Below are positions 1 to 40,585 of a stretch of 64,000 bases of DNA, one piece after another; position 1 is the first letter of the stretch; each line of letters starts with the position of its first letter. Below the pieces are notes generated by a model. It was not told where the DNA came from, did no database searches, and saw nothing but the letters and a program-made list of their open reading frames with translations. The DNA comes from a virus (lineage: Duplodnaviria > Caudoviricetes). The stretch is taken from IMG/VR virus record IMGVR_UViG_3300033067_000628, positions 9,705-73,704 of that record. The stretch is one strand, 5' to 3'. The position numbers were made by a program, and so were the translations under genes.

Positions 1-1049
1 TGTTGCAATCTAATGAGGAAGTCTGTGGCATATAGTATGTTCTTAGGAACATGAACTATTAGCTGTCTATAGTTAGACTGACTAAGGACAATTTCTATAT
101 CAGATGTATAGACAGTATCGAAGTTAAACTCTACCCAGTCCAAGCTTTCTTCAACAGAGAATCCTTTAATAGGATATCTAATCTTAGAAGAAGACGTAGG
201 ACGATATGTAATTTCTAATACTTTAACTGGTGCATTAGAAAATGGTAGAACTTTGATTTGATTAATAGCCTCAGCACCACTGAAGCTAAGTCTAAGAACT
301 ACAATAGGACCGTTAACTAATTCAGATATCTCACCATCTGCATTAGCGCCCCATCGGTTGTAGGTAGTTTGGATAGGGACATCAGAATAGATAACCTCAG
401 ACCAGAAAGTTTCTGGCTTAGAGTCAACAGCTTTCTCAGCAGTAAACTGCTTACCTAGCTGACCACGCTGTCCATTGAGAATGGTTGCAGTAACAGTTGT
501 AGTTCTATTACCACGATTCAATAGGTGAGCTCTACGCTTCAAGACATAAGGAAGCTTAAGGAGTCTTGAGTCTCCATCGATTACAGCGGATGGAGATCTA
601 GTAGAAACGTTCCTAGAGATGTTAAAATTTACAAGCTTGACATCATCAAACTCAGGCATCCTATTGCGAATAGCAAAGACCCGGGCATCGTTGATCAGCT
701 TTAAGATAGCTGCACGAGATTTACTATACTCATCGTCTAAGGAAGACTTATACTGAGTCTGAAGATTGCTAAGTAGATCAGTCTGTTTATATAAACCTTT
801 TAAGTCTATATAGGCAGATTCCATATTTGAGTTATGGTCCGCAGAACTGATCTTTGATTCTTTGTCAGCATACTTTGGATTGAATACCTGTTTACCGCTA
901 GAAATCAAAGATACCAATCTCTTGGCTTCGAACTCAATAGCTCTAGAGGTTCCTATTTCAGACCTCTTACGCATTATGTTGACAATAGACTTTACAGCTT
1001 CTGTATGGCCTACTCCAACGATATTAGCAATTTTATCTAAAAGATTCAT
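1..1049 (-). CDS. Partial gene (runs off the left edge): putative virion structural/baseplate protein
   Basis: Not in the ORF track because it is open-ended. I translated it by hand from the ATG at 1049, which overlaps the upstream TAA (TAATG). It reads MNLLDKIANIVGVGHTEAVK...TFWSEVIYSDVPIQ...INQIKVLPFSNAPVKVLEITYRP...LIRLQ, about 349 codons with no stop before the edge. Function is inferred from context. Confidence 0.75.
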   Translation of the reverse strand, partial: MNLLDKIANIVGVGHTEAVKSIVNIMRKRSEIGTSRAIEFEAKRLVSLISSGKQVFNPKYADKESKISSADHNSNMESAYIDLKGLYKQTDLLSNLQTQYKSSLDDEYSKSRAAILKLINDARVFAIRNRMPEFDDVKLVNFNISRNVSTRSPSAVIDGDSRLLKLPYVLKRRAHLLNRGNRTTTVTATILNGQRGQLGKQFTAEKAVDSKPETFWSEVIYSDVPIQTTYNRWGANADGEISELVNGPIVVLRLSFSGAEAINQIKVLPFSNAPVKVLEITYRPTSSSKIRYPIKGFSVEESLDWVEFNFDTVYTSDIEIVLSQSNYRQLIVHVPKNILYATDFLIRLQ

Positions 1050-4000
1050 TAGAGCCTAGGCGCTATCTTTCCAGTTATTGCAGAGTATTGATCAACAGTC
1101 CATGACCCCGTATAGGCTGCTAGCAGAGAAAGATATCCCATAAGAGGTACAGACCCAGGATCACCAGCAGGGGAAATAGAATATACCGGATTATAAGGAT
1201 AACCACCAGACAGCGAATAAAGAGCTTCAGTTGTTCTGAAGAGTCCTTCTGCAATGCTAGTCCACTTCCTAGCCTGAATAGTGTTACCTGTTAGGGTATA
1301 GTACTCTATGGCTTTAGCACAAGCACTGAAGAGTTCTGATGGGACAGATCCAGAATATGGTGCCTGTTTGTTTTTAAACGAACCACCTTCTATTAGTATT
1401 CCGTCTTGATTGAGACTGCCTTTTAGTACCGCAGCCATGCTAGTTTCAAAGGTACTTACTAGTCTGTCAGTATCAAAGCTAGTAAACATTGGGTCTTGTT
1501 TAGCTTTGTGAATTGGAAGCCACATCAAATTCTTGATAGCAGTTATAGAGCCTGGTGGGAAGATACCACCACGAGCAGCGCCTACTGTTAAGTAAGGTTC
1601 TATAGTCAGCTGGTTAGAGTACACACCAGATATAGCCAATGGGAATAGATCTGTCATGGTTCCATTAGAACCATTAGGCCAACTAAGGATATCAGTTCCC
1701 CAAGACAAGTCGCCACTTAGGTTGAGATCTGGACTAAAGGTCTCTTCATAATAGATAGGGTCTTTGGCTTGATAGCCAGTATACCCAGCCCAACATCTAT
1801 TGCCATAGTAGAGATCATCCATAGCAGTACAGACATTGTCAAAGTGATGAGCTGCAAGCTTAGATATACGGTTGTATTTTGTAAGCCAGGTATCTGGAAG
1901 AGCAGTACCAGTATAAGTAGGGCTGTCAAAGTAACTATCAAAGTAATATGTAGCATTACTTATGCCCGAGAAAGCAATGGTCTTCGGGTTATAGTTGACG
2001 TTCATTCCAACTCTACCGCTATATAAAGCCCCGTTGACTGGGCTAACTTGCATAGAGTACATAGCAGCAAAAGACTTAATGTATTCTGTATTAAGATACT
2101 GGTTATTGCCAGTAGAGATCTCAGAGTTAGAATAGCCAGTAAGGATCGGGACTACTGAATCAGTAGATGGAATATAGTATACAGGTATGACATCGCTATT
2201 GATAAGCGAAGATCCACTAAATGGATTAAGGTTCATAACCTTATTAGCTATCTTAATAGCACCAGAGTATGCATTAAGAGCAGTAGCCCTAGTAGAAGTA
2301 TTGAGCCATGAAGCAGCGCCAGTCAAGTTAATAGCTTGTGTGTTAGAGCTGAATAGATCTAGACTTTCATTTACCTTATGCTTAGCAAACGTAGAGTACA
2401 GATAGATATCTCTTAAGGCATTATATTGTCCAGTATAAGGTGTATCATAAGCAAAAGTATTATAGTTCTGGCGTCTTGGGAAAGTAGCTGTACCAGTTAA
2501 TCCACCATAAGTAGCAAGCATTTGACCATTGGCTACTATATAACCAGTCATTATATTCTTAGGATACATTGAGCCATAGTATTTATATATAGGCTCAACT
2601 AATGGAGTAGTGCCAACACCAGAGATTGCTGGAGCTGTAATAGCAGTAGTAACGTCTGGTATGTAACCAGTAAATAGTCTTGTTTGGTTACCAGTAGTAA
2701 GCTCTTTAGCAAACATCATTATGCTAGAAGTGCTATATACCAGATCATCCCAGAATGTACTTGATGGTACATATGCAGCCAAGCCTGTAAAGTTTCGTAT
2801 CTCTTTGTAGCCATACTGAGAGTCTATAGATACAGAGTTAGCACTGAGCTGACCAGTACCTACTACAGTAGTGTCACGAACGGTAACTTGATTCCACTGG
2901 CCGTCTTGAGTACGTTCTTCATAAGAGAAGATTGGCTCAGGAGAAGAACGGATATAAGTATGCTCAAACTTTTGACCAGGGCTTAGCTTAAGGACATTGC
3001 CTTCGGTATCTGGATTGGATAAGAAACTAGTACCACTATATATACCAGTAGTATATAAGCTATCTGGCAAAGCCATAGAAGGATTAATCCAACCTGCTGC
3101 TTCGCCAGAGTTACCAAAGACAGATATGTCACCAGAAGCATTGGACTCTGCTATTGTATAGCTAGCTAAAGAGATATCAGCTGTATAGTCTGTAGGTTCA
3201 AACTGAGAAGTGTATTCATTAGTATTGAATCTAAAGATTGGATATACACCAGCAGCTATAAATTTATTAGCCCTATCTTTAATGTCACTTACAGACATTA
3301 CTTCTTTAAGCTCAGAAGGTAACTCAACTACTATTGCTGCAGATCCTGGATATGGTATACCATCGATCTTACCAATATCAAAGAAGTATTGTGACTCTTT
3401 AAACTTCTTCTCTGTAGCTTGACCAAGTTCATCTTCTCTTAAGCCACCGCCATAAGATCTTGTGTCAGTAACATTAACAGTGTCAAGGCCACCAAATGGC
3501 TTAACGTTAACGGCACCAAGTATTGCTATTGGCTCAAATGGATTCTCTACTTCTATTTTAAAGATAGCATCTTCTATTGAAGATCCAATAGAGTGATATA
3601 TAGACCTTGATCTATTAATGCCAGAGTTGCTCTTATATGGCAAGGCATAGAATAGAACATACTTATCTAATACGAACGGGTTCTGTAAGAAGTGCCCATT
3701 GAGATTTATATCTTTATAGACTAAGCTATTCTCAAGATAAGTATAGTAGACAAACGAATCTTTAGGAAGCTGTATACCTTCTTTGATATATACTATTCCA
3801 TTGATAGTATCAACATCTTTAATAATAGAAGATGGATATACCTTATCAAAGCTAGAGCTAAGGAATTGTATATTGTTATTCTTGAATAGAACTGGGAATC
3901 GAGATAGCTGTATTGAACTCTGAGTTATAAAGTTAGCAGGCTCACCTTCTACATCAGCAAAAGGTTTGCCCCATAAAGAAGACCAAGTCTGGTGTATATA

Positions 4001-4528
4001 CTCAGGAATACCAAAGTGATATATGATACCTTTGTAGGTCTGTAAGAAGGTACCGTTAGTTATAGGAGCCCACCAAGGTAAGGCTGCACCTTCAAGATAA
4101 GGAGCCTTGACTCCAATAGAAGAGGTCTTGTTATAGACAGCGGACCATCTTGTGCATCTAACTATTACAGACTTGCCGTCATTAGATATATCCTCGATAT
4201 CAAACGATGCAGGTATAGAAGTACCAGAAGCCTTAAGTTCGTCAGCGACTAAGTTAGAAACTTCAGCTAGCGAGATGATATCAATAGGATACGGCGAGTT
4301 AGATAGCTCTAGTGCTACTTGCCTTACAGACTTACCTACATAGGTAATAGTATATGGTGTAGTACCATTAGTTATACCAACAGTAGTAGATGTAAGAACC
4401 AAACTATAAGTTACAGTAGTATCTGGGTATAGTCTATTCTTGAATAGCAATACACCAAGCGGCCTGGCAGTTTGAGTGCCAAGCACACCTCTCATGAACT
4501 CAATAGTTTGTTTAGATAAGTTTGACAT
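1049..4528 (-). CDS. Large virion structural protein (baseplate/tail-associated), 1159 aa
   Basis: Long ORF coupled by TAATG at both ends. The segment DTRSYGGGL...YFFDIGKIDGIPYPGSAAIVVELP resembles baseplate-region proteins of large myoviruses as I recall them (unverified). The C-terminal part looks helical. Confidence 0.6.
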   Translation of the reverse strand: MSNLSKQTIEFMRGVLGTQTARPLGVLLFKNRLYPDTTVTYSLVLTSTTVGITNGTTPYTITYVGKSVRQVALELSNSPYPIDIISLAEVSNLVADELKASGTSIPASFDIEDISNDGKSVIVRCTRWSAVYNKTSSIGVKAPYLEGAALPWWAPITNGTFLQTYKGIIYHFGIPEYIHQTWSSLWGKPFADVEGEPANFITQSSIQLSRFPVLFKNNNIQFLSSSFDKVYPSSIIKDVDTINGIVYIKEGIQLPKDSFVYYTYLENSLVYKDINLNGHFLQNPFVLDKYVLFYALPYKSNSGINRSRSIYHSIGSSIEDAIFKIEVENPFEPIAILGAVNVKPFGGLDTVNVTDTRSYGGGLREDELGQATEKKFKESQYFFDIGKIDGIPYPGSAAIVVELPSELKEVMSVSDIKDRANKFIAAGVYPIFRFNTNEYTSQFEPTDYTADISLASYTIAESNASGDISVFGNSGEAAGWINPSMALPDSLYTTGIYSGTSFLSNPDTEGNVLKLSPGQKFEHTYIRSSPEPIFSYEERTQDGQWNQVTVRDTTVVGTGQLSANSVSIDSQYGYKEIRNFTGLAAYVPSSTFWDDLVYSTSSIMMFAKELTTGNQTRLFTGYIPDVTTAITAPAISGVGTTPLVEPIYKYYGSMYPKNIMTGYIVANGQMLATYGGLTGTATFPRRQNYNTFAYDTPYTGQYNALRDIYLYSTFAKHKVNESLDLFSSNTQAINLTGAASWLNTSTRATALNAYSGAIKIANKVMNLNPFSGSSLINSDVIPVYYIPSTDSVVPILTGYSNSEISTGNNQYLNTEYIKSFAAMYSMQVSPVNGALYSGRVGMNVNYNPKTIAFSGISNATYYFDSYFDSPTYTGTALPDTWLTKYNRISKLAAHHFDNVCTAMDDLYYGNRCWAGYTGYQAKDPIYYEETFSPDLNLSGDLSWGTDILSWPNGSNGTMTDLFPLAISGVYSNQLTIEPYLTVGAARGGIFPPGSITAIKNLMWLPIHKAKQDPMFTSFDTDRLVSTFETSMAAVLKGSLNQDGILIEGGSFKNKQAPYSGSVPSELFSACAKAIEYYTLTGNTIQARKWTSIAEGLFRTTEALYSLSGGYPYNPVYSISPAGDPGSVPLMGYLSLLAAYTGSWTVDQYSAITGKIAPRL

Positions 4529-7500
4529 TATACAGAGCCAGTCCAGCCAGTTGTATCACCATGCCATATATTGATATCATATGATCTTAGTGTGGCGTTT
4601 AAGTTCATGCTATACCATCCTGACTGTCCAGAGAACTTACCATCAGGATAGACATCATCATAAGACACCTGTTTCATTAACGGTATCGGATTATATATTT
4701 CAGTATCTTGTAGATTGACTACCGAGTTATCATATGATAATGACGGATAGTTAATAAAGACTGTCTTACCTATTGTTTGATATGGCGAGATTAGTATTGA
4801 GGTATATACTCTATCGGTATTGACTAACCCAGAATTAATTACTGTATTGAATCCATAATAGTTAGATACACCAGTAAGAGGTATAGAAGGATTATATGGG
4901 AAGGATACTATACGATATGGGAACTCGTCGTATGTCAAGTTATTACCTTGAGCATCCTTGATTACAATAGCCTTGTCAATCTTTGTTAGATTGTTATGGT
5001 ACTGATCATAGTCACCAGTAACCTGGCTGTGCGGTAGAGCATTAGGTACATAGATGCCTTTTGATTCACCACCTATAAGGTGCATGAAGTATCCTACATA
5101 AGAATTGGCATTGTCATTCCATACTGGGAACGAGCTGAGTCTTATGTCTGTTGAGTCAAACTGACCAGTAGCTCTGATACCTTGACCTGATGGATTGTAG
5201 ATAAAAGTTCGAGCAGTGAAGTCACCATAGAACTTGTTAGTTATGTTAGCATAGTTTTTATCAGATAGATCGAATGCTACAGTAGAAGAATCACTAGTCC
5301 ATTCTTTATTATTGATAAGGGCTAGGTTAACACCTTCAGGTGGAACATTACTACCTATCTGTATTGGGCTATCAGTAGAACCAAACGATTGAGTAGCGCT
5401 ATCGTTCTCATACATTGCATAGTATGACTCAGCATTGATAAAGACTGATTCATCAAAGAGAGCCAGGCCAGCCTTGTTGAGACCTTCATAGTCATTACCC
5501 ATATTGGATGTACACCATAACAGGTGCTCACCAGCACCAGTGAATGGAGTAGCAGGATAATGAGCTATACCGTAATAGGGCTGCTGTGTGGGTGTACCAG
5601 TACCAACAATGTAATCGATTATTGTATCTGTGTTCTTAACAGCTACGTCACTTAAGCCAGAGAAACCAGAAGCACCAGTATGTGCTAGTTGCTTCCATGG
5701 CCATATATAGCCAGAGAATGGGAAGCCAACAAAGAGCTCGCTGACACCAACGTCAAAGTATCTAAAGGACTGAGCCGCTGATATAGAGGCATCTCTAGGA
5801 TGCTCACCACCAAATATGAAGTTGGATCTATTAGTAACGTTATTCAAAGAGCTGCCAAGCAGGCCCTGATAACCTACGCATCTACCAGTTGTAGAGCTAA
5901 GCCAGCCGGTCTCTGTTAAATAGACTGGAGTATTTGAATCAAGATCCCCAGAGATATATGACTTAAGATAACCAGAGCCGAGTCCAAGATTGGCATCTAT
6001 GCCGATGTGACACCAAGAGCCAGTAGGAACAATGCCACCCGTGAAAGGGCCAACTACATATTGACTAGTAGTACCTATGCCTTCTCGTGTACGACGAGTG
6101 CCATATACTAATTGTGCACCAGAGTTAATACCAATATAGGCGCTAGCTAGTGCATAGCTATTGATACCATTTACTTCTTCATAAGATACTAAGTCTGCAA
6201 CCTCAAGAGCTCCAGTTGGCAGGTTAAAGATCTTAAAGAAACCACCAGCAACAAACCGAGAGTTTGAGTTAGTACGCTGATAACCACTTAAGCCACTAGC
6301 CCATTTGTCTAGGTTAGCATGCGCAAAGGCAGAGTTGTTAGAGTAATATCTATCACCGGCATTAGCTACACCAGCTTGTGTCATCGATGCAGAGCCAGTA
6401 CCATTAAAGATACGCTCGTCATATGCAGAGAATGGTATTACTAAATTAGCTGAAGGACCAAGGCGCCTAGCGTATCTACCCTTAGGACCAATTATCTTTT
6501 CAACAAAGAGTTGATGTGTCTTAATGCCACGACTAGAAAGCTCTTGTGTTACAGAGGCATTGTTAGGAATCTTAAGATGGGTTATACCAAAGCCTTCATC
6601 CCATTCAAACGCATCTTCTTGTGCATCAAGTCTGTAGATGTGTGACCACTGTAAGTGATTATAATCACCAGTAGATGGAATAGGAGGCTTAATGGAATTC
6701 CAAGGAGTAAAGGTTGGAGGAGAAGTTTTAGCTCCAAACACAGAGCAAGAAGCTCTAGCATCTACTCTATCGCGTATACCAAATCGTAAGTGGTCCATGT
6801 CACATAGAACATATTGACCAATTGTAGTTTGACGTGAGGTACCAGTTAAAGCGTAAGATGGAATCTTAGGCCAGGTATTGACATAGGTAGTAGAGGCAGG
6901 ATAAGATGCAGCTACAGAGCCAGCCAAGAATCCAGTCTCTCCATATGGATCAATTGCAAGACCAACTGAATTGACTGGTCTACCGTTGATTTCTAAAACC
7001 AATCTAGATGTACGTGCACCGTGATATATCTTATCACCAGCTGCAACCAAAGGCTGATCTGATGCAGTCTGTATATCACCAATAGCTCTAGTATCTTGGT
7101 AGACACCAATGTGATTCCAGTTACCAAAGCTAAGTGTATTGCTCTCAGAGGTAACAGAAACCTGACCGCTTCTCCCGGTAATCACAGAACCATTAGTTCT
7201 AGGCCCGGCAACTTGCCAGCTATCTCCTGTGATACCCATTGCAGAAGAGTGAACGTTTAAATCTATAGTAGCTCTAGGCTCACCACTTCTATTTAGATAT
7301 AAGAAGAGACCACGACCATCAGAAGACACACTCTTTAGTAGCTCTACTTCAAAGCCTGTAATTGTGCTAACGAAGCCATGTGGCCTTATCCATCCTTCGA
7401 ATAGCACTGAGCTTCTAGAGACAGGACTATATGGAACAGTGTCATATACATCATAGTCTCTAAGTGGAGAGCTATTTCTAGATATAGCACCAGTAGAAGT

Positions 7501-9711
7501 ATACTGTACGAAGTTATGGTCTACGATAGAACCAGTAACAGAGTATAGAATAAACTCATCTACGTCTTCGTTAAGAAGCTTTTCTTTCCAGCTACCCCAT
7601 CTATTAAGGATCAAGCCAGAAGGCTTAGTAAGTCTTGGCACAGATCCGAATGATATAGTTGTATCTGATCTATCGCCAGTATAGGTAACAGCACAGCTAA
7701 ACGGCTTAGGCTGTCTATATTGATAACCATCAAGGTAGTATCTAGTGCTAGTAGATGTATCCTTCAGAGTAACCATTACACCAGGGCCGCGAGGTATTTG
7801 TATTACACCCTGTATTACACCAATCTTAAGTTGGCCTGTAGGCGGTTTGATACCAGTCATGCATATACCGATATCTTGAGTACTCGAAGAACTATACCAG
7901 CTATCAACTACAACTCTCTGTGCAAAGATAGTAGAGTTATCAGGAGTAACATATGGCTCTACAATATACTGAACAGCAGCTATACCTGTGGCAGCAGTAG
8001 GAGGGCTAGCTGGATATGGTGAGTATGTACTTAGTAGTTCACCATAGAATATATTGCCAGTAGCTAATAAATTACCAGTCATCAATGGAGATGAAGCATT
8101 AGTACTCCATACACCAGAGTATGAATCTTGTATATTGAAGTTACGCCAAGCATTACCATAGAAGCCATCTTCTATTCTTACCAAGCCTTGGCCTGTATAA
8201 GATGAAGATACCAAACCTGGGAATAGGTTTGTCTCTGGTGCTGGGACATAAGAACCAACAGCGACCCGTGGTATAGAAAGCTCGTTGTGTAGATAGATCT
8301 CATCCTGATAGTGAGGAGGAGGTATTAGAGCTTGGTGCTTATCTTTGTCTATAGCAAAGAATATATCTTTAGGAAGAGATGACATCTTCCAGTTAGGAGT
8401 GATGTCAACTAATGTATAGCTACTCTTGGCTATTGTAGTTATATCATCTATCTCAGGCACATTGCCACTAAGAGAATTGGCTGTGAGCTTAAACCTTATT
8501 GCGTTTGGTATACCATTAAAGACTGGTATAGAAGATAGATCTATGTAGCTTGTAGGGCTTTGTGTGCCATTGAATGTTAAAACTGGAGCAGCAGAATCTT
8601 GCCATGCTGTAGATCCAAAGGACCCAGATGGCGTAGCATACTGTACAGCAACTGTGGTACTACCACCATTGTATTGGTTAGCTTTAACAACAGCACCAAC
8701 ATAGTTAGATATAGAGTGGCTAGGATACCACGGAGCTGTATAGATACTCTTAGAGCCACTAGGATATGTAACAGCATATCCACTAGGATAAGATACAGCA
8801 GACAGTCCAAAGGTTATCTTAACGTCATCCCAAAGGACAGTACCTTCATAGCCAGCTATGCCGGTTAAGCCTTTAGAGTCATAGAAGAATGGAGTACCAG
8901 TATTACTCTGGAAGAATCCGTTAGTACCAGTAAAGTTAGCACCACTGAAGAAAGGTGGAGCACCGAAAGCAATGTATCTACAAGACTGTGTAAATGGTAA
9001 AGCTGACTGGCCAGATGGAACATAGAGACTTGTATTGTCATCAGCTTGAATGGTATAAGAGTTAACCTCTTTAACCAATCTAATACGTCTCATCCTAGAT
9101 GAGTAATCACCAGGAAGAATAGCGCCAGTTGTGCCGTGAACTTTCAACCCAGACGGGTGGACTTCTATAAAGCCCCAGTTAACTGTATTACCAAAGTATA
9201 TACCATGGCATGTAACGCCACTAAGAGACTCTGGACCAAGCTGGTGTGTTACGCCTTCAGGTAAAGATCTCACACTAAGCTCAATGGTCATCTTACCATA
9301 TTGCAAAGTAGTCTTACTAGATGCATTATAAACAAAGCAGCTATGGTTGCCGCTAACCCAATTACCATTAGCACCAGTAACAGGCGTTGTTGTAGATGTA
9401 AAGAACGCCGTTTGTGAAGTATCTCCAGTGTTACCATAGATACCAAGCGAGGTGCTTTGGTAACCAGTAGCAGTAACAATAGAGAAGTTACCAGTAACTA
9501 TAGGTATAGAGTCAAGAGTGTTATTGACATCCCAAGTAGTAACTGGTGGCCATGGTGCATCGAATGAATATGTTTGTCCAGAGAAGTAGGCGGGGAGCAA
9601 CTTAGCTACCCCGTCTACTATCTCATATTCACCGGTATTGGTGTATATAGCACCATCAGAGCTAGAAAAATCATCCTTAGCCCAGGTGCTATACTGCGGT
9701 AGAAAAGTCAT
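4528..9711 (-). CDS. Tail fibre/adhesin-like protein with two LamG (ConA-like lectin) domains, 1727 aa
   Basis: LamG-type motifs: FEGWIRP...GNWNHIGVYQD...LEINGRPV (about 6900-7420) and AGGFFKI...GSWCHIGIDAN...KSYISGDL...YFDVGVSELFV (about 5720-6260). Rich in S/T/G/Y, consistent with beta structure. Confidence 0.7.
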   Translation of the reverse strand: MTFLPQYSTWAKDDFSSSDGAIYTNTGEYEIVDGVAKLLPAYFSGQTYSFDAPWPPVTTWDVNNTLDSIPIVTGNFSIVTATGYQSTSLGIYGNTGDTSQTAFFTSTTTPVTGANGNWVSGNHSCFVYNASSKTTLQYGKMTIELSVRSLPEGVTHQLGPESLSGVTCHGIYFGNTVNWGFIEVHPSGLKVHGTTGAILPGDYSSRMRRIRLVKEVNSYTIQADDNTSLYVPSGQSALPFTQSCRYIAFGAPPFFSGANFTGTNGFFQSNTGTPFFYDSKGLTGIAGYEGTVLWDDVKITFGLSAVSYPSGYAVTYPSGSKSIYTAPWYPSHSISNYVGAVVKANQYNGGSTTVAVQYATPSGSFGSTAWQDSAAPVLTFNGTQSPTSYIDLSSIPVFNGIPNAIRFKLTANSLSGNVPEIDDITTIAKSSYTLVDITPNWKMSSLPKDIFFAIDKDKHQALIPPPHYQDEIYLHNELSIPRVAVGSYVPAPETNLFPGLVSSSYTGQGLVRIEDGFYGNAWRNFNIQDSYSGVWSTNASSPLMTGNLLATGNIFYGELLSTYSPYPASPPTAATGIAAVQYIVEPYVTPDNSTIFAQRVVVDSWYSSSSTQDIGICMTGIKPPTGQLKIGVIQGVIQIPRGPGVMVTLKDTSTSTRYYLDGYQYRQPKPFSCAVTYTGDRSDTTISFGSVPRLTKPSGLILNRWGSWKEKLLNEDVDEFILYSVTGSIVDHNFVQYTSTGAISRNSSPLRDYDVYDTVPYSPVSRSSVLFEGWIRPHGFVSTITGFEVELLKSVSSDGRGLFLYLNRSGEPRATIDLNVHSSAMGITGDSWQVAGPRTNGSVITGRSGQVSVTSESNTLSFGNWNHIGVYQDTRAIGDIQTASDQPLVAAGDKIYHGARTSRLVLEINGRPVNSVGLAIDPYGETGFLAGSVAASYPASTTYVNTWPKIPSYALTGTSRQTTIGQYVLCDMDHLRFGIRDRVDARASCSVFGAKTSPPTFTPWNSIKPPIPSTGDYNHLQWSHIYRLDAQEDAFEWDEGFGITHLKIPNNASVTQELSSRGIKTHQLFVEKIIGPKGRYARRLGPSANLVIPFSAYDERIFNGTGSASMTQAGVANAGDRYYSNNSAFAHANLDKWASGLSGYQRTNSNSRFVAGGFFKIFNLPTGALEVADLVSYEEVNGINSYALASAYIGINSGAQLVYGTRRTREGIGTTSQYVVGPFTGGIVPTGSWCHIGIDANLGLGSGYLKSYISGDLDSNTPVYLTETGWLSSTTGRCVGYQGLLGSSLNNVTNRSNFIFGGEHPRDASISAAQSFRYFDVGVSELFVGFPFSGYIWPWKQLAHTGASGFSGLSDVAVKNTDTIIDYIVGTGTPTQQPYYGIAHYPATPFTGAGEHLLWCTSNMGNDYEGLNKAGLALFDESVFINAESYYAMYENDSATQSFGSTDSPIQIGSNVPPEGVNLALINNKEWTSDSSTVAFDLSDKNYANITNKFYGDFTARTFIYNPSGQGIRATGQFDSTDIRLSSFPVWNDNANSYVGYFMHLIGGESKGIYVPNALPHSQVTGDYDQYHNNLTKIDKAIVIKDAQGNNLTYDEFPYRIVSFPYNPSIPLTGVSNYYGFNTVINSGLVNTDRVYTSILISPYQTIGKTVFINYPSLSYDNSVVNLQDTEIYNPIPLMKQVSYDDVYPDGKFSGQSGWYSMNLNATLRSYDINIWHGDTTGWTGSV

Positions 9712-9714
9712 TTT

Positions 9715-11013
9715 TTAGTTGCCGCTAGAAATCAAAGCAGTCATGTTGTCTAAGATATCTTGGTATATGACTACCTGATCCGGGGTTAATGAATCAATTA
9801 AGTTATTGACTTCAGTAGGATCGTCATCAAGCTTATAAAACTCTTGAGCTGAGCCAGTAACTATTAACTTGTAAGGCCATTTGATCATTGTCTCTGCAGA
9901 AGAGGTATGAGGTACTAAACCAGATGGCTTAAACATTTGAGCAAACAAATACTGACGTGGAAGTATAGAGCTTGTATCTTGAATAACAGGCATGATGTCC
10001 ATACTATCAAGATGTCTTGTAGCTGTTACAATGGCTGTATTAGCTCCTGTGCATTCAGCAATAAAACCAAACAAGTCAACTACAGATACAAGCTGATTGG
10101 TGAATCTACCTGGATTAACTACAATAGGACCAGATATAATTAGTGGTACTCTAATGCCACCTTGGTATACACTTCTCTTGTACTTACTTGGATCAGCAGG
10201 CGGCTCTACTGCACTAGACTCAGTACCATTGTCACCTACGATAATGAATACTGTATTAGCAAGCTTGACTGAGTCCATCTCAGACATGATCTGACCTATC
10301 AAAGTATCAACTGATTCTAGGTTAGCATCATAGTAAGAGAAGATCTGCTCTGGCGTAGTAGGTAGAGTGCCAGGTGCTGGTAACCCAGCTACTGTATGCA
10401 AAGTAGATGGCGGTACGCTATAGTCAGCATGAGGTGGATTAAAACCTACATAAGCGAAGAACTTATTAGGTTGCGCATTGATCCAGGTTACAGCATCACG
10501 TTTAGCATGTGAGGCAGACCAGGTAGTCTCATCATAAGGCGGGGCAGATATGTTAGTAGATACGCCATTATTTACCTTACGCCATATCCAGTGGCTAGGA
10601 AGGTCATTAGACATACAGCCATGGAATTCATGGAAGCCATTACGCAATGGATGTAGGTCATCACTTGTAGCTGTACCAGAGTGCCACTTGCCAAAAGCAC
10701 CACATTTGTATACGCCACTAGATGTGGTACGACGTATCATCTCAGGTATTAGAATCTCTGAGTCAGGAAGCTCATATTCATTAGCAACTATATTGCAGCC
10801 ATGGCCATGTCTAAATGGGTTTCTACCAGTAAAGAGACTGGTTCTAGTTGGGCCGCATATAGGCATAGCATAGGCATTACGGAAGACAATGCCATTAGCT
10901 GCTAAGCTATTCATTACAGGGGTATTAGCGCATACTGTGTCTTCTTCATAGAATGACAACTTGCTAGGGCTAATATCATCGAGCACTATTAGGACAACAT
11001 TATATTGAGTCAT
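9715..11013 (-). CDS. Type I (formylglycine-dependent, Cys-type) sulfatase family hydrolase, about 432 aa, no signal peptide
   Basis: All canonical motifs appear in order: VLIVLDD (metal), ICGPTRTSLFTGR (CxPxR at 10843-10857), FGKWHSG, FNPPH, IVGDNG, KRSVYQGGIRVPLII. I moved the start from 11034 to 11013, where the ATG overlaps the upstream TGA (ATGA). Confidence 0.93.
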   Translation of the reverse strand: MTQYNVVLIVLDDISPSKLSFYEEDTVCANTPVMNSLAANGIVFRNAYAMPICGPTRTSLFTGRNPFRHGHGCNIVANEYELPDSEILIPEMIRRTTSSGVYKCGAFGKWHSGTATSDDLHPLRNGFHEFHGCMSNDLPSHWIWRKVNNGVSTNISAPPYDETTWSASHAKRDAVTWINAQPNKFFAYVGFNPPHADYSVPPSTLHTVAGLPAPGTLPTTPEQIFSYYDANLESVDTLIGQIMSEMDSVKLANTVFIIVGDNGTESSAVEPPADPSKYKRSVYQGGIRVPLIISGPIVVNPGRFTNQLVSVVDLFGFIAECTGANTAIVTATRHLDSMDIMPVIQDTSSILPRQYLFAQMFKPSGLVPHTSSAETMIKWPYKLIVTGSAQEFYKLDDDPTEVNNLIDSLTPDQVVIYQDILDNMTALISSGN

Positions 11014-12029
11014 TCTATTGATACCTCTGTCCATGCGGACATTTCACTTAGTTCACCAAACTCACCTTGGAATCGTACAGCGTAGCCGTAACGCCTTCCA
11101 CTCCTTATATTTCTGTCATACATTGTTTTCCAAGGTTCAGAAGTCCAGTCTTTCCAAACCTGAACATTATCGACATTATTTTCATATCTTAGTACTTGAT
11201 ATTTAACCTTTAACTTGTCTATTAAAGCATTGTTCTTACTAAGATAGTACATCGAAACCTGGACGTGTCTAGGATCAGACATAACTAATACAGAAGGAGA
11301 AGCAGGTACAACATTAACCATAGCATGTATATTCAACATACTTTGATTACCAATAGTATCTGCAAAGGTTACAACTACATCAGTAGGGTCACCAAAGATA
11401 GAGTTGGCAGTGATAGATATCTCTTGTATCTCATCTTCACAAACAGTTAGGCTGAAGTCATCTGTAGTAGGCGTAGTGCAATTTATTGCACATAGACATG
11501 GCCCTGTGCCAAGGTCAGAATATTGAATCTTAAGCTGTTGGGTTACGCTATAAAAGTATATCTTATATGGAGTAGGCAGTAAGCCCTTCTGTAGAGTGTA
11601 CTGTGCTGATGGGTTAGAGCTTACAAAGACATTAGCGTCTTGTATTATACTACTGAAGTTAAGATTACCAAGCGTACCAAACAACTGTAGGTCTAGATTT
11701 AAAGAAGCTACGCTGGCATAGTTATCGATCAATGAGCCAACTGAGTAGGCAAGCACGATAGCTTTAGTAGAGCAGTTAGTTACTATAGGGAACTCAGCAA
11801 CGCCGATTCCTTTATACTCAGGTATATATCCTGCGCTAACATCTACACCATTTATCTTAAGCACAGGTACGTAATCATATACGCCAGTAATGACAGCTCT
11901 GACATAGACAATGTCGAGGTTGTCTCTATCTTGGCAGCACTCTACTATATACAAACTCTCAGGTACAACCACGCCACCAACGTTAGCTGCTAAGCAAGAG
12001 AAGTTACTGTCATCGATTTCTGTAAACAT
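11010..12029 (-). CDS. Cys-rich protein with a C-terminal fibronectin type III-like domain, 339 aa
   Basis: The C-terminus (YQVLRYEN...MYDRNIRSGRRYGYAVRFQGEFGELSEMSAW) fits the FN3 pattern. Eight Cys residues. Coupled at both ends. Confidence 0.6.
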   Translation of the reverse strand: MFTEIDDSNFSCLAANVGGVVVPESLYIVECCQDRDNLDIVYVRAVITGVYDYVPVLKINGVDVSAGYIPEYKGIGVAEFPIVTNCSTKAIVLAYSVGSLIDNYASVASLNLDLQLFGTLGNLNFSSIIQDANVFVSSNPSAQYTLQKGLLPTPYKIYFYSVTQQLKIQYSDLGTGPCLCAINCTTPTTDDFSLTVCEDEIQEISITANSIFGDPTDVVVTFADTIGNQSMLNIHAMVNVVPASPSVLVMSDPRHVQVSMYYLSKNNALIDKLKVKYQVLRYENNVDNVQVWKDWTSEPWKTMYDRNIRSGRRYGYAVRFQGEFGELSEMSAWTEVSIE

Positions 12030-14506
12030 TATGTACCCTTAATCCAAACTATAGTCCTCTGTGCCAATGACACAGACTGCGGATTTCTTAGTGCTACACC
12101 TATATATGAATACCTTGGACATGCAATTGAAGTTATCAAGAACCCATTAGATATAGTAGTTCCAGCAACTTCTACTGCATCAGTAGGTGTAGACTTGTCA
12201 GAACCAGCATGGTATATCGACATATCAGTAGTATAGAATGGCGTAATCAAACTAATAGTATATGAGTTAGTAGTAGCGTTATAGCTCATACTATAAACAG
12301 ATATATCATTATAGGTTAAGTCTTTACCTATATATAGCGTTAGAGAATTGACAATAGGAGCAGTAGAGGATATCTTCAATATAGTGTCATTAAGATCAGC
12401 ACGCTTACTTTGATAAGACATAAGAGCACAGTAGTCTCCTACAGGAGAAATACCACCTTCTGTAATCTTACCAGTAGAATAATACTTAACAACATTGCCA
12501 TCCTGTAAGCTAATAGAATGCGTGATATCTTTATTGTCACATACAGTCATAGCTGTTAGATTGATAACTTCACTTGTACCAAGATAGCTAGTGATAAGCT
12601 TAATAGAATAGTCTGGCTCACCAAGAACCAATCTCATGGACTTATTAGGATCTACAAGACTAAAGACTGAGTCCTTATACGGTGCAGCCGTTGCACTAGA
12701 GATATTAAGAACTCCACCACGAATCGTGCCGCTGTCTAAGAACTTAATAGGTACCTTGACTACACCTTCGATATCACCTTGTTCAGTATAAGCTATAGCC
12801 ATTAAGTAGCCTACACCAGGCTTATACCGTATAGGGAACTTATCTGCAATCTTAATAGACCCAGCTCTGCTAATCGTTTTACTGGTACATAAGAGGTCGA
12901 GGCTAGAGTCAGTCTTAAGAAGGACAGCTAACGTATAGCGATATACTTTTGATGTACGTGGAGTTAGATAGCATTCAAAGAATGCAGCATCCCCGACTCT
13001 AACATTCTGTTGAGACTTAATATCAAATTTGAAGTTAGCTATGAAGTCATCTGTGTTCTTAGCATAGTCTACATTGGCTAAGATCTTACGTATTACACCA
13101 GAAGGACTTCTATTGCCAGCAGACATAAGACCTAAGTTGGAGTCTACACCTATTGGCCTGGCTTGAGCTAGACCTCTTGAAGATTGTGACTGTATCTTAT
13201 TGCCAGGATCTATAGATATTTCTTTTGGTGCAGCAACACTGATATGGTTTAATACATCATTCGATCCGTTTATGTTGATACGTGAACGTAAATTGTTACT
13301 GGATCTTATATAGACATTCTGTCCGACTGTCGTAATTGAGTCCATTACCTTAGTGCTTGGACTTACTGTCTTGTCTGCATTAGGTGTAATGTTTAGAATA
13401 ATGTCTGGCTTGTCCGGACTTCTAATACTATTGGGAGAAAGATTAAGCTGACTAGCTGTTGCACGCTTATTAATGATAGCATTGTTTTGGCTTAAGAACT
13501 CTCTAGCTTTAGCTGCTACCTTGGCATTAAGAGTACGTGACATACTTATCGAAGCACTGGCGCCTCCGTATGTAGTTCCTTTTAGCCTACCATGAAAGAC
13601 AGTACCAGGACCATATAGGCCTTCACTAGAAGACGCACCCAGAGTTCCGAATTCATATGAGTATATATTTTCTAATGGCGATAGAGCTGGATAGCCAAAG
13701 ACATTAGTAGAAGGCACACCACCAGGGCCTTCTGGACCAGGAGTAATAACAACCTGGCTTGGTTCGTCACCTGGCTCAAATGAACTAAAGATAAAGCTAG
13801 GAGTAGAAGGACCAGTCAATGGACTACTTGGGAAAGTAAATCCTGATGTACCAGTACCTATAGGACCGGTACCAAATACACCAGTCCCAGTAGCTAGGCC
13901 ACTAGAGGCGCCACCACTGTGAGGAGTGCCAGGACCTGTACCATTGCTTGGCTGGCTAAAGGTCCAGCCGCTATCAGGTTGGCTAACTCCATCGGATCCA
14001 GTAGGCGCATGATACTCACAGTATAGGCAACCGTTACTATCACTTCTTAGTATATAGTTAGGGCCACAGTTGTTGCTAGTGTTAAATGAATCACCAGATG
14101 TATTAACAGTGCCCTGAGGTGCTTGCCCGTACTGTGTAGTATAGTGAGCAGTACCACAAGGATCTACATAAGAACATGTAGGATCTGAAAGAACTAGCTG
14201 AACTAAATAAGAATGATTAGAGTCAAAGTCAGCAGGGCTCAAACCCTCTAGGCCGCCATAGTCCCATACAAACTTATAGTTACCAGCATACTTAATCACA
14301 GTAGAGTGAAGAGGATGCTGCGTATTGGGAGTCATTGTTATCCAGCTAGAAGAGCATACACTTCTATAGCCGCAATCTTCTAACACGAATTGCCAAGACC
14401 CAGCATCTGGATTAAAACAATCCTGACGCAAGTAGAAAGATATAATCAATCTACGCGCCCATGGTATGTTCTCTATAGAAGTAATATCTATCTTATGAAT
14501 AGCCAT
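12029..14506 (-). CDS. Putative virion appendage protein: Cys-rich N-domain, G/S/P/T linker, beta-rich C-domain, 825 aa
   Basis: Eight Cys in the first ~165 aa, then a low-complexity linker. TAATG coupling at both ends. Function is inferred from context only. Confidence 0.5.
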   Translation of the reverse strand: MAIHKIDITSIENIPWARRLIISFYLRQDCFNPDAGSWQFVLEDCGYRSVCSSSWITMTPNTQHPLHSTVIKYAGNYKFVWDYGGLEGLSPADFDSNHSYLVQLVLSDPTCSYVDPCGTAHYTTQYGQAPQGTVNTSGDSFNTSNNCGPNYILRSDSNGCLYCEYHAPTGSDGVSQPDSGWTFSQPSNGTGPGTPHSGGASSGLATGTGVFGTGPIGTGTSGFTFPSSPLTGPSTPSFIFSSFEPGDEPSQVVITPGPEGPGGVPSTNVFGYPALSPLENIYSYEFGTLGASSSEGLYGPGTVFHGRLKGTTYGGASASISMSRTLNAKVAAKAREFLSQNNAIINKRATASQLNLSPNSIRSPDKPDIILNITPNADKTVSPSTKVMDSITTVGQNVYIRSSNNLRSRININGSNDVLNHISVAAPKEISIDPGNKIQSQSSRGLAQARPIGVDSNLGLMSAGNRSPSGVIRKILANVDYAKNTDDFIANFKFDIKSQQNVRVGDAAFFECYLTPRTSKVYRYTLAVLLKTDSSLDLLCTSKTISRAGSIKIADKFPIRYKPGVGYLMAIAYTEQGDIEGVVKVPIKFLDSGTIRGGVLNISSATAAPYKDSVFSLVDPNKSMRLVLGEPDYSIKLITSYLGTSEVINLTAMTVCDNKDITHSISLQDGNVVKYYSTGKITEGGISPVGDYCALMSYQSKRADLNDTILKISSTAPIVNSLTLYIGKDLTYNDISVYSMSYNATTNSYTISLITPFYTTDMSIYHAGSDKSTPTDAVEVAGTTISNGFLITSIACPRYSYIGVALRNPQSVSLAQRTIVWIKGT
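13580..14010 (-). repeat. Low-complexity Gly/Ser/Pro/Thr-rich coding stretch (flexible linker)
   Basis: Encodes PNGTGPGTPHSGGASSGLATGTGVFGTGPIGTGTSG...PGPEGPGGVP. Boundaries are approximate. Confidence 0.6.
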
Positions 14507-17500
14507 TAGAATTCAGAGCTCAGGAATTGGTTTTCAAACTGAGACAGCTTGGGGTTCTGTAGTATGATTGGGAATGTAGCAACGAACTCTCTATTGAGTG
14601 GCTCACTGACACGAACCTCAAGCGCAAGTTCAGCATCGTAGTCTACTTGTATTGCACCAGAGTAATCATTGAATACTTGGTTGTGATGGAAGATAATCGT
14701 ATTCTTATTTACAGGATCAGGGTAAGCATACTTAGGTCTATACTCTACATAGAAAGTAGAGTCAATAGTACCAGCAGGAAGTTCTATCTGCCCATATGAG
14801 TAATTGATTCTATACTCATTAGACTGAGGATCAACCTGAGTCTCAGAGAAATTAATAACGCCAGCTTTAACTTTGACACTACCATTACAAGGCGGATAGC
14901 CTAATGTGATAATAGACTTATCACCATTGCTTTCGGCTACATATAGACCTGTTAAGGCTGTATCTGATAAGGTCTTATGTTGTTTACCGCTAAGACCAAC
15001 GACTGTTATATTACCATTGTTCTCTGTGCTTACATTGTATCTTGTAGAGATATACGATAGACTATCTACAACTCCTGATAGTCCACTTACGCTGAGCAAG
15101 CTACGAGGAACACTACCAACGTAAGACACCAAATGAGCATCAGGACATACAAAGCCACAAGAAAAACTGCCATTGCTATTAAGTGAGCCATAGATAGTAG
15201 AGCCTAACTGTTCTTTTGCACCATAGTGTTTTTTAGAAAGCCAGCCAGGGAAGTTCCCATTAGGATCGTATACATGTGCAACGTAGTTCCTGAGGCTGTA
15301 GGGATTATAAGAAGTATCCAATACTTGGACACTTAGACCTTCGGGAAGTTCTGCTTCTTGTGAGACTCTTAATACAGAAGGGCTCATTACAGCCTGTGCT
15401 GCATTCTTAGGGAATACATATGGAGAGATAATATTCTGAGGCTCACCAATTGTATCGCTATCAACAGAGCGTTGATGTAGCTTATCTTTACCGTAGAGTC
15501 TAGCCCAAGGAAGAACGCTCATTCTGCCATGAGGCCAGCGATACTCATGCAAGGTAGTGACTTCAGGATCTGAAGGACCACCCCATATGGTAGCAGGCAT
15601 ATCAGCTATATACAAGAACCCATTTGGGTTCTCGTTAAAGACCGGGCTAATATTCATTCTCTTGTCAATAAATATACCAGACTGATCAGTCTCAAACTCC
15701 ACAGTCATATCAGTGAAGCTAGGCTTAGGATGGTAATAGCTTGGCTCAAGAGAGTACTCGGCTTGTACTGCATCAAGTGCAAAGAAAGCACCTGTAGACA
15801 TTAGTCCAGAATAGTTATAGCCAGATAGAGTTAACTCAACCTTAGTAACGTTATCATCTAGTACTGCTGCACCAGTCTTAAGATAAACTAGAGGAGCACT
15901 AGCGAGTCCCGGCTGTGATAGATCTATTATCTGATCAGCAGGACCAAGAGGTAGATAGTATCTCTGATAGCTAGGACCTACAACGAAGTCACCTTCTATA
16001 CGAGCTGGGATCTCTTCATCATAGTTATTAAATTGAGTTACTATATACTTACCACTAAGGCCTGTAATAGATTGACCATTAGTACCAGTGATACCAGTAG
16101 GCAACATAGCATGCCAAGTAAAGCATAAGTTCTCATTGCTATGTATATCTATTTGTGGAGACGTAATAAAGCCTGGGTCTGGAGATACAGACAAGCCTAC
16201 AGCTTTATCACCCCAATATGAGAACTGATTCCATAGTATAAATACAGACCTAGGGTTGCCTTGAATCTTAGAGATCCAATCTCTAGGTGTATTACCAGAA
16301 TAGCTATAGCAGAAGTCGCTGTTCTCTAATAGGTTAGAGTTGCCACCAAATTGTATATGACTCTCGTGAGTCTTATGATCTAAGACAACTTGGAAGTCTC
16401 TATATACAGCATCAATAGGATTAGTAAATGCAATTCTGTCATCAGTAATAACTACAGGGGCACCAGCTTGATAAGACTCTGGTAAGATAAAGCTAGTAAT
16501 ACCATCTTTAATCTTAAAGACATAATAGGCATTCTCATTAGTGAATGAGTTGTCATACCATTGACGTACCTTACCCAGGATTTGAATCTCATCATTATAT
16601 GATGTGATGTTGTTATTCCTATGGTAGATAGTTAAGTTCATACCAGAAAGGTCCCAGTCCTTTTCGGATATCTCTTTATCTCTAATACGAATAGAGAGTG
16701 GCTGCTTTGTATCTAAGATACCAGGAAGCTTAAGAACTGTCTTAGCAAGATAGCCTAAGTTAAAGGCACCCTTCTTGCCATATAAATAGAATGGTCTTTC
16801 ATGAGACCAGAAGTATCCAGCTTTGATAGCAGGATAGGTCATAGTCAACTCTTGAGCTGATATAACATCAAGAGGATCTATATTACATTTCTTAGATGGA
16901 TCAAGCTCTAGTGGGGACGTAAAGATATCTTGACCAAAAAAACCATTAAGAGACTTCTTGTCGTTAGCACCAATAGCAGTTAACGGGAACTGTCTAGTGT
17001 TAAGAAGAGAGTCTACAGATATAAGTGTGGTGTTAAAGTCAGATGGTATATAGAAGCTATCAGAGCTATAGAACCATGAGGGAACTTTACCGAGAAGCGG
17101 GCTATTATCTATGATATTCAGATTAACAATAGACGAAGATGTATTGCTTAATAGCGATACGTTCTGTATAAACACTGGGTGTATAGATACAGAGTGCTGA
17201 TCAATTAAAGCTGCATTGCTAGAACCAAGAGGACCCGCTTGTCTCCAGTCTAGTATATTGACATAACTTTTTCTTACTATCTCCTGCTCATCTTGCGGGA
17301 GAGTGGCATTGTCAGAACGTAACTGAACAGGGCATGTTTGAGAATAGAAGTCATTATAGTCACTGAGCAATCTATTGTTCTTAAGATCTTCTTCATAGAA
17401 GATTGCAGCAGGACATCCAATTGTATATACTAAGTTACCAAGGCAGTAGACTGTGCTAGGATTGGAGTTACCATATGTACGTTCGCCCTGGAGTATTAGA

Positions 17501-18153
17501 CCAGCCTTGGAAGCTCCATTGAGAGCTGTAAGACCATCAAGGAAGATAGTATTGTGATAGCATCTAATATTCTTTACATACTTAACAACGATACCATACT
17601 CACCACCAACTATAAGGTTATTAACCAGATAGAGGCCTTCTATATTGTGAATATAGATCTGAGCATTCTTATTGTTAGTAACAAAGCATCTATTGATATA
17701 TAGATTATGACAGTTAAAGCCAGCTGATATACCAATCAAAAAGCTTTGAACTCTTATACCTTGTATCTTAACATTAGGATTATTAGATCCTATATCTATA
17801 CCTATTAGCCTATTGGAGATATCTTGATCACCAGATTGATTCGCTGCAGGTGTGATTACTGGTAAAGCATCAGATATTATGTTACCATTATCACCTACGT
17901 CTTGTCGTCTAATAACAAGATATCTCCCTTGTGCTTTAATAGGAGGTGTTAAGTTATCTGGTATCTTAATAGCAGAAAACTTATCATTGCCAACAAGTAC
18001 TATGTTAACATTCCCACCATCTGGAGCAGAGGTAGAAGGTAACTGATAGTTACCACCTTGCAATAGTGTAGCTATTGCATTGATGGCTTGGTTAACAGTA
18101 GCATAGGGTTGCCCCTTGCCAACATAGTAATTGTTTTCAATCAATAAAGACAT
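14506..18153 (-). CDS. Tail-spike-like protein with an N-terminal right-handed parallel beta-helix and a CBM-like domain, 1215 aa
   Basis: Starts YYVGKGQPYATVNQAINAI, a typical beta-helix cap. Asn-ladder repeats follow (NNLIVGGEYGIVVKYVKNIRCYHNTIFLDG). A later CBM-like segment runs NLLENSDF...ALDAVQAEYSLEPSYYHP (about 15730-16340). Confidence 0.7.
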   Translation of the reverse strand: MSLLIENNYYVGKGQPYATVNQAINAIATLLQGGNYQLPSTSAPDGGNVNIVLVGNDKFSAIKIPDNLTPPIKAQGRYLVIRRQDVGDNGNIISDALPVITPAANQSGDQDISNRLIGIDIGSNNPNVKIQGIRVQSFLIGISAGFNCHNLYINRCFVTNNKNAQIYIHNIEGLYLVNNLIVGGEYGIVVKYVKNIRCYHNTIFLDGLTALNGASKAGLILQGERTYGNSNPSTVYCLGNLVYTIGCPAAIFYEEDLKNNRLLSDYNDFYSQTCPVQLRSDNATLPQDEQEIVRKSYVNILDWRQAGPLGSSNAALIDQHSVSIHPVFIQNVSLLSNTSSSIVNLNIIDNSPLLGKVPSWFYSSDSFYIPSDFNTTLISVDSLLNTRQFPLTAIGANDKKSLNGFFGQDIFTSPLELDPSKKCNIDPLDVISAQELTMTYPAIKAGYFWSHERPFYLYGKKGAFNLGYLAKTVLKLPGILDTKQPLSIRIRDKEISEKDWDLSGMNLTIYHRNNNITSYNDEIQILGKVRQWYDNSFTNENAYYVFKIKDGITSFILPESYQAGAPVVITDDRIAFTNPIDAVYRDFQVVLDHKTHESHIQFGGNSNLLENSDFCYSYSGNTPRDWISKIQGNPRSVFILWNQFSYWGDKAVGLSVSPDPGFITSPQIDIHSNENLCFTWHAMLPTGITGTNGQSITGLSGKYIVTQFNNYDEEIPARIEGDFVVGPSYQRYYLPLGPADQIIDLSQPGLASAPLVYLKTGAAVLDDNVTKVELTLSGYNYSGLMSTGAFFALDAVQAEYSLEPSYYHPKPSFTDMTVEFETDQSGIFIDKRMNISPVFNENPNGFLYIADMPATIWGGPSDPEVTTLHEYRWPHGRMSVLPWARLYGKDKLHQRSVDSDTIGEPQNIISPYVFPKNAAQAVMSPSVLRVSQEAELPEGLSVQVLDTSYNPYSLRNYVAHVYDPNGNFPGWLSKKHYGAKEQLGSTIYGSLNSNGSFSCGFVCPDAHLVSYVGSVPRSLLSVSGLSGVVDSLSYISTRYNVSTENNGNITVVGLSGKQHKTLSDTALTGLYVAESNGDKSIITLGYPPCNGSVKVKAGVINFSETQVDPQSNEYRINYSYGQIELPAGTIDSTFYVEYRPKYAYPDPVNKNTIIFHHNQVFNDYSGAIQVDYDAELALEVRVSEPLNREFVATFPIILQNPKLSQFENQFLSSEF

Positions 18154-18498
18154 TTATTTTACTTTACGTTCTAGGTCCAATAGTCTAGATTGCATCAATA
18201 GGATTTCTGCTCGCATTGCCGAATCACTTTCTTTTAAGTGACTTATCTCTGAAAGATAAAAAGACTTATCAGCATTAGCCTGTGTGCCAGTATATCTATC
18301 AGCGCTAGCAACCTTGAGCTGTTCTTTTACAGCATCCATATTAGCGTTTAAGACTGCCAGACTAACATTAGTCTGCATTGAATTGCTACCAATCCATCCT
18401 ATAGATCCAACGATCAATGCTATAAATAACGTAGGTGCCACCTTCGCTAAAAAGGCAATGACCCAGTGTCTTCCATCTGTAGTTTCTTGCTCAGCCAT
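18154..18498 (-). CDS. Small membrane protein (one N-terminal TM segment plus coiled coil); holin-like candidate, 114 aa
   Basis: Hydrophobic WVIAFLAKVAPTLFIALIVGSIGWIG followed by heptad-like C-terminus. Purine-rich AAGGGGA upstream of the start. Confidence 0.45.
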   Translation of the reverse strand: MAEQETTDGRHWVIAFLAKVAPTLFIALIVGSIGWIGSNSMQTNVSLAVLNANMDAVKEQLKVASADRYTGTQANADKSFYLSEISHLKESDSAMRAEILLMQSRLLDLERKVK

Positions 18499-18507
18499 AT
18501 AGTCCCC

Positions 18508-40578: not shown

Positions 40579-40585
40579 TTATAAC

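Follow-up and report, generated by a model that had tools for sequence, protein, structure and literature searches.

A 64,000-nucleotide stretch of viral DNA (hereafter the window; bases 9705-73704 of the linear 73,704-bp IMG/VR virus contig IMGVR_UViG_3300033067_000628) carries, inside a conserved block of tail-appendage genes, a gene predicted to encode an intact, formylglycine-dependent sulfatase of family S1 that has been inserted in one phage lineage. The contig (completeness about 38% by CheckV) is a fragment of an uncultured, contractile-tailed myovirus of about 180-190 kb, the genome size of the clade being taken from a complete relative of 189.7 kb. We propose, tentatively and short of calling it probable, that the sulfatase was captured, is made late, is matured by the host and desulfates a glycan of the host surface outside the cell.

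The gene, as supported by its translation, Pfam, an alignment of 60 homologs, an AlphaFold2 model and Foldseek, is as follows:

9715-11013, minus strand: formylglycine-type S1 sulfatase, 432 amino acids

A first-pass annotation, made from the letters of the window, had given these coordinates correctly, with the strand unstated. The start codon is the ATG at 11013, and a second ATG in the same frame, at 11034, would lengthen the product by seven residues. The product matches PF00884 over residues 5-323 (E = 2.3e-31; 109.7 bits against a cut-off of 25), and SGSH_C is also matched. All of the motifs quoted in the annotation were found in the translation, namely LDD (D12, D13), CGPTR (the cysteine being rightly numbered Cys53), GKWH, PPH, GDNG and KRSVYQGGIRVP. 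The CGPTRTSLFTGR signature is retained, and the element C-x-P-x-R followed by x4-T-G-R reads C53-G-P-T-R57-T-S-L-F-T62-G63-R64. The ten residues of the catalytic and metal-binding set (D12, D13, C53, R57, K109, H111, H195, D261, N262 and K279) are all kept; we take them to correspond to D29, D30, C69, R73, K123, H125, H229, D281, N282 and K302 of ARSA. Across the 60 homologs, D12, C53, R57, T62, G63, K109, H111, H195, D261 and N262 are invariant, and D13 and K279 are conserved in at least 90%.

The AlphaFold2 model, computed with the same alignment (predicted local distance difference test, pLDDT, 95.4; predicted template modelling score, pTM, 0.95), consists of catalytic fold throughout, from residue 5 to the C-terminal helix, with an alkaline-phosphatase-like alpha/beta core and a C-terminal subdomain. 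Foldseek aligned this model with S1_19 carrageenan sulfatases at template modelling (TM) scores of 0.78-0.82 (E = 1e-28), and S1_16, ARSB and ARSA were also matched. Judged by its sequence and modelled fold, in which every feature looked for is present, the product appears to be a genuine and intact Cys-type sulfatase. It has no signal peptide, as had been noted before; because beta-strand 1 starts at residue 5, there is no room for one even from the ATG seven codons upstream.

Phosphonate monoester hydrolases have the same formylglycine site as S1 sulfatases, and the protein could be a formylglycine-dependent hydrolase of another ester class, that is, a phosphonate monoester or phosphodiester hydrolase or a promiscuous arylsulfatase-like enzyme. 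Pfam Phosphodiest is indeed matched, more weakly than PF00884 (27 bits), the NCBIfam matches are all below threshold and include the PehA phosphoric/sulfuric ester hydrolase, and the identity to any characterised sulfatase is 17-25%. We nevertheless consider such an activity improbable, as carbohydrate and aryl sulfatases account for all of the top matches by sequence and by structure (S1_19, S1_16, ARSB, ARSA and GALNS) and the sulfate-binding Lys/His set is complete. The best sequence matches in the PDB are to S1_19 and S1_16 (E = 2e-25 to 5e-24), with 20-25% identity, which is too distant for assignment to a SulfAtlas subfamily.

The sulfatase gene is flanked by p339, upstream, and p1727, downstream, and its junctions with both could be read directly:

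11010-12029, minus strand: p339, conserved Cys-rich protein of the structural module (homologs of 30-60% identity in nine related contigs)
11010-11013, minus strand: ATGA overlap between the p339 stop and the sulfatase start (sequence gaATGAct), consistent with translational coupling
9712-9714, minus strand: 3-nt spacer (aaa) from the TAA stop of the sulfatase to the ATG of p1727 (sequence aacTAAaaaATGact)
4528-9711, minus strand: p1727, conserved giant appendage protein directly downstream of the sulfatase (homologs in the relatives)

Synteny in related phages had been suggested as a check on the gene, and related contigs were gathered through p339 and a second protein of the block, p1215 (see below). 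Nine contigs were obtained (L053/L060, L056, L057, L058 and L061-L065), among them the complete genome mentioned above, which has terminal repeats, and a 92%-complete record of 177.6 kb; an additional one, L059, is a fragment of 1.4 kb that does not reach across the p339/p1727 junction. The order p663-p1215-p825-p339-p1727-p1159 (window 1049-20499, minus strand) is kept wherever these genes lie on a fetched stretch, at GC contents from 33% to 48%, and the sulfatase itself is absent from all nine contigs: tblastn found none in six of the related loci, and PF00884 is absent from the six larger related records, which were searched whole. In nine of nine, including L056, the closest relative found (58-60% identity), the homologs of p339 and p1727 abut or overlap. 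Because the relatives have p339 and p1727 directly adjacent, with nothing between them, the sulfatase gene was inserted in a single lineage, at the precise boundary formed by the p339 stop and the p1727 start. Orthologs of the sulfatase were not found in IMG/VR by peptide-pattern scans, run with the single protein and with a 10-sequence alignment, and no related phages were found through the major capsid protein. A metagenome scan with the p1727 family returned no loci, and one with the p339 family returned four.

The ATGA overlap and the 3-nt gap, both reported in the first-pass annotation, are exact. On neither side of the gene is there a consensus promoter or terminator site; it thus lacks a promoter and a terminator of its own and is unlike a classic phage moron. 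Its GC content (0.416) and its GC at third codon positions (GC3; 0.328) are, like its codon usage (r = 0.90 to the rest of the phage), usual for phage genes of its size, and for this reason its arrival appears to have been neither recent nor artefactual. The gene is found on one contig only, as would be the case if reads of a bacterial sulfatase had been joined into a phage contig during assembly. Such a chimera is, however, hard to reconcile with a composition indistinguishable from that of the adjoining phage genes, and junctions lying exactly at a stop/start overlap and a 3-nt spacer, between flanking genes of full length, are not expected of a random chimera; on composition and gene boundaries we reject it as scarcely credible. 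There is also a slim chance that the gene is a neutral passenger, brought in by illegitimate recombination, tolerated in the operon and contributing nothing, for instance because its product is not matured in the host. The gene is a singleton, both among the relatives and in a set of 5.8 billion proteins, and no maturase is seen in the contig (see below), as this explanation would have it; yet the frame is open and the catalytic residues are intact despite a residence long enough for full amelioration from any high-GC donor, and the gene boundaries are tidy and coupled.

As to origin, metagenome-assembled genomes (MAGs) of Planctomycetota account for nearly all of the closest homologs, at 40-43% identity, and of the 52 loci that a genome scan returned. 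A quick maximum-likelihood tree places the phage sulfatase on a long branch inside a 40-member clade with 100% support, which is cellular and mainly from Planctomycetota. Because it falls inside this clade, the donor would have been a member of a Planctomycetota-dominated group of cellular sulfatases, and the gene would count as a host-derived auxiliary gene in the broad sense, a cellular origin and a patchy distribution among related phages both being indicated. The most similar proteins by identity, P0003-P0011 (438-444 amino acids; 40-43% over the full length), also have no signal peptide and start at beta-strand 1. The Planctomycetota MAGs L001, L002, L003 and L052 have a conserved synteny, with a gene for a dipeptidyl peptidase IV (DPP-IV)/S9 peptidase upstream, the sulfatase gene, and a convergent gene for an HldE-like kinase/cytidylyltransferase; genomes of this type have 67-72% GC and 7-20 genes each with a formylglycine-generating enzyme (FGE) domain. 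Longer fused relatives of the sulfatase, with multicopper-oxidase or YHYH domains, are bacterial, not from phages; fusions to multicopper-oxidase and glucodextranase-N domains (P0160, P0162 and P0164-P0170) are 1,600-2,150 amino acids long, and one of these is named as from a Verrucomicrobiaceae MAG. Among GenBank phage records, tblastn gave 13 weak matches (22-33% identity), which were set aside as unannotated faecal fragments or bacterial-looking contigs, with no convincing tail-module sulfatase among them. The p1215 profile was not found among 401 Planctomycetota genomes searched, a result that is uninformative on the host.

These cellular homologs bear on the main rival to a role at the host surface, namely that the sulfatase is an intracellular auxiliary metabolic gene (AMG) whose product hydrolyses imported sulfated oligosaccharides or small sulfate esters in the cytoplasm, yielding sulfate or carbon for the phage, its site in the tail operon being accidental and serving to supply late transcription. 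A protein that has neither signal peptide nor anchor domain, that is closest in identity to cellular enzymes also devoid of a signal peptide, and whose gene is dispensable in all relatives could be of this kind, and sulfur-related AMGs, FGE included, have already been reported in phages (PMC10232697). Late co-expression with tail proteins would, however, leave little time for a metabolic benefit, and the insertion is in what appears to be the host-specificity part of a tail module, beside a depolymerase-like protein and in no metabolic island. In the tree, moreover, the phage sulfatase is not nested in the signal-peptide-less cellular subclade, and 28 of the 40 clade members have N-terminal extensions that the phage protein lacks. 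On balance, we regard the metabolic role as possible but rather unlikely.

Two proteins encoded further upstream speak for a role at the host surface:

12029-14506, minus strand: p825, with the N-terminal ~160 amino acids conserved and the remainder variable (569-929 amino acids in relatives)
14506-18153, minus strand: p1215, 1215 amino acids, two genes upstream of the sulfatase (AlphaFold2 fold and structure alignment)

The p1215 family comprises 37 proteins of near-constant length, encoded on contigs of up to 196 kb. In the AlphaFold2 model (pLDDT 78.6), residues ~5-377 of p1215 form a right-handed parallel beta-helix, like that of phage tailspike depolymerases and of pectin and rhamnogalacturonan enzymes. 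Structure alignment with VIA-align matched this helix to the capsule depolymerase of the Acinetobacter phage Fri1 tailspike (6c72; Z = 18.7, root-mean-square deviation 3.6, 234 residues), to a rhamnogalacturonan lyase (5olq; Z = 18.5), to Klebsiella phage depolymerases (Z ~16) and to chondroitinase B (Z = 13.5). Residues ~603-802 form a beta-sandwich like that of a carbohydrate-binding module (CBM), with CBM16, CBM61, CBM4-2 and a porphyran-binding module matched at Z = 12.6-13.8 (VIA-align), and Foldseek and Atlas leads provide additional evidence for the fold of p1215. The variation of p825, whose gene lies one gene from the sulfatase, follows a pattern typical of a swappable receptor-binding fibre. 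Because of the beta-helix/CBM fold modelled for p1215 and the receptor-binding-like variability of p825, the sulfatase gene appears to lie in that part of a glycan-oriented tail module which governs host specificity. The first-pass annotation had placed it among tail fibre genes, and by and large this holds: the gene is in a block of large proteins after the baseplate wedge gene, one of them with a tailspike-depolymerase-like fold and a CBM. Both of the directly flanking genes are without recognisable domains.

S1 sulfatases act together with glycoside hydrolases and lyases that would otherwise be blocked by sulfation, as in the degradation of carrageenan, fucoidan, glycosaminoglycans and mucin. 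The conserved beta-helix/CBM protein two genes upstream, the variable p825, and the lack of a signal peptide as against the N-terminally extended majority of the clade all speak for a surface role, which we regard as plausible. In the mechanism that we favour, one lineage of the myovirus would have captured the sulfatase from a cellular source, into the conserved tail-appendage block. As the gene brings neither a promoter nor a terminator and its product has no export signal, the sulfatase would be synthesised in the cytoplasm late in infection, alongside the tail proteins, its translation probably being coupled to that of p339. After maturation, whether freed by lysis or loosely attached to the tail, it would act extracellularly and remove sulfate esters from a sulfated capsule, exopolysaccharide (EPS) or envelope glycan of the host. 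Once the polymer was desulfated, the p1215 appendage, with its depolymerase-like beta-helix and CBM, and the fibres would be able to bind or cut it; desulfation could also stop progeny from being trapped on cell debris.

Bacterial FGE and the anaerobic sulfatase-maturating enzyme (anSME) act in the cytoplasm, and Cys53 would be oxidised there to formylglycine by an FGE or anSME of the host, or by a maturase encoded in the ~60% of the phage genome that lies beyond the contig. The first-pass annotation had seen neither enzyme and had concluded that the host would have to supply a maturase; within the limits of the 73.7-kb contig this holds, no gene for FGE (PF03781) or a radical-SAM protein (PF04055) being present in it. 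Because the contig is only about 38% complete, the phage as a whole cannot be said to be without a maturase.

Several observations weigh against a role of the sulfatase at the host surface. As no ortholog is present in any of the nine related phage contigs, the tail module works without the enzyme. In the set of 5.8 billion proteins there is, beyond the sulfatase itself, nothing above 43% identity (the next match is at 41-43%), and the P0003-P0011 group is cellular, has no signal peptide and is encoded beside a DPP-IV peptidase and HldE, not beside glycan-degrading genes. No relatives of the sulfatase fused to tail domains were found, and the protein is no more than a catalytic core, to which neither an anchor nor a fibre-like domain has been added. 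Thus, like known tail enzymes, the sulfatase is encoded in a tail/receptor-binding module, but it has neither their N-terminal anchor nor a fusion to a structural protein. A strict association of the sulfatase with the virion is, in our estimation, doubtful. The same degree of doubt attaches to a more specific version of the surface role, in which the host-matured sulfatase would dock non-covalently on p339 or p1727, or act beside them, and strip sulfate so that p1215 can cut capsule or EPS, the two enzymes forming a virion-associated machine.

The remaining members of the block and the structural genes of the contig give the setting of the insertion. The annotation had described the sulfatase as fully integrated in the late structural operon, and this is borne out by the strand: every long open reading frame of the contig is on the minus strand, as are terminase, portal, capsid, sheath and baseplate, identified as follows:

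61920-63866, minus strand: large terminase (PHROG match)
57731-59995, minus strand: portal (PHROG match)
53698-55092, minus strand: major capsid protein (PHROG match)
48274-49803, minus strand: tail sheath (PHROG match)
28418-44992, minus strand: three giant proteins (PHROG matches)
25601-26728, minus strand: baseplate wedge subunit (phrog_6, 1.6e-32), at the start of the baseplate/appendage region
1049-4528, minus strand: p1159, last member of the six-gene block in the window (33-56% identity to relatives)

Downstream of the baseplate wedge gene there is a run of large proteins without a Pfam or PHROG function, and the sulfatase is inside this run. For p339, no match was found in Pfam (E up to 10), PHROG or, by sequence, the PDB. 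Likewise, p1727 gave no Pfam match (E up to 10) and no PDB sequence match; its identity is 37% over the full length to the homolog of L053 and 58% to that of L056. The last protein, p1159, gave no Pfam match (E up to 10), no PDB sequence match and no Atlas lead, and matches weakly PHROG 28704, a family of unknown function. Between p663 and p1215, a gene for a 114-amino-acid protein (18154-18498, minus strand) has weak homologs (26% identity) in L057 and L058 only; it is missing from this position in the other relatives and represents a second presence/absence polymorphism of the block. Among the distal appendage genes, in contig bases outside the window, locus L054 (2167-2862, minus strand) encodes a 231-amino-acid protein with no Pfam match and a lipoprotein-like N-terminus, formed by a hydrophobic stretch followed by a Cys. 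The codon usage of the major capsid gene stands apart from that of the rest of the phage (r = 0.62; GC3 0.47, elsewhere ~0.32), which probably reflects an expression-linked codon bias. No tRNAs were found in the 64-kb window.

Should the sulfatase act on the host surface, removal of sulfate esters would join the glycosidase, lyase and deacetylase chemistries by which phages penetrate the coats of their hosts, and would suggest hosts whose envelopes are sulfated; envelopes of this kind are widespread in marine and particle-attached bacteria and unexplored as phage receptors. If the two-enzyme virion machine were true, this would be the first sulfatase used for phage entry; if the gene is a metabolic passenger, it makes a modest addition to the auxiliary genes of phages. 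In either case, its presence or absence in an otherwise fixed six-gene block amounts to a natural experiment on the role of the sulfatase, and a compact enzyme free of a signal peptide could serve as a tool.

Among known systems, the solved S1 sulfatases (S1_19: 6bia, 6b0j, 6psm and 9hh2; S1_16: 9fo1; human ARSB: 1fsu; human ARSA: 1auk) have their fold in common with the phage sulfatase (TM scores 0.77-0.82), as well as the C-x-P-x-R-x4-T-G-R element, the metal ligands and the sulfate-binding Lys/His residues; the phage sulfatase differs from them in its low identity (17-25%), in having no signal peptide, in being phage-encoded and in lying outside any polysaccharide utilisation locus. The Planctomycetota sulfatases P0003-P0011 (L001, L002, L003 and L052) resemble it in size, in starting at beta-strand 1 and in the lack of a signal peptide, but they are chromosomal, in genomes of 67-72% GC and in a DPP-IV/HldE context, whereas the phage sulfatase is on a long branch of its own. 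Tail-borne O-antigen deacetylases and esterases also modify surface glycans. The glycan enzymes of phage tailspikes and fibres (Fri1 gp49, 6c72; those of Klebsiella phages, 7vz3 and 9qrm) are encoded in the tail module, as the sulfatase is, and have the beta-helix fold modelled for p1215; the role proposed here would follow the same logic, a substituent being removed to make the receptor accessible or open to cleavage. Those enzymes, however, are trimeric virion fibres, or are fused to them, and have an N-terminal anchor, whereas the sulfatase is a free-standing globular protein with no anchor. Full-text literature searches returned no published case of a phage-encoded or tail-associated sulfatase, and in BFVD sulfatase folds come from giant viruses only, with no full sulfatase fold from a tailed phage. 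The archaeal tailed virus DNTV-1 has two sulfatase-superfamily open reading frames and a sulfatase-maturating enzyme in its gene map (bioRxiv 10.1101/2025.02.15.638363), and FGE has been found in Pseudoalteromonas phages (PMC10232697). Like the phage studied here, DNTV-1, the Pseudoalteromonas phages and the giant viruses thus carry genes of the sulfatase family or of its maturation; unlike the present sulfatase, theirs have been treated as metabolic, with the substrate undefined, and none has been described in a tail-appendage block.

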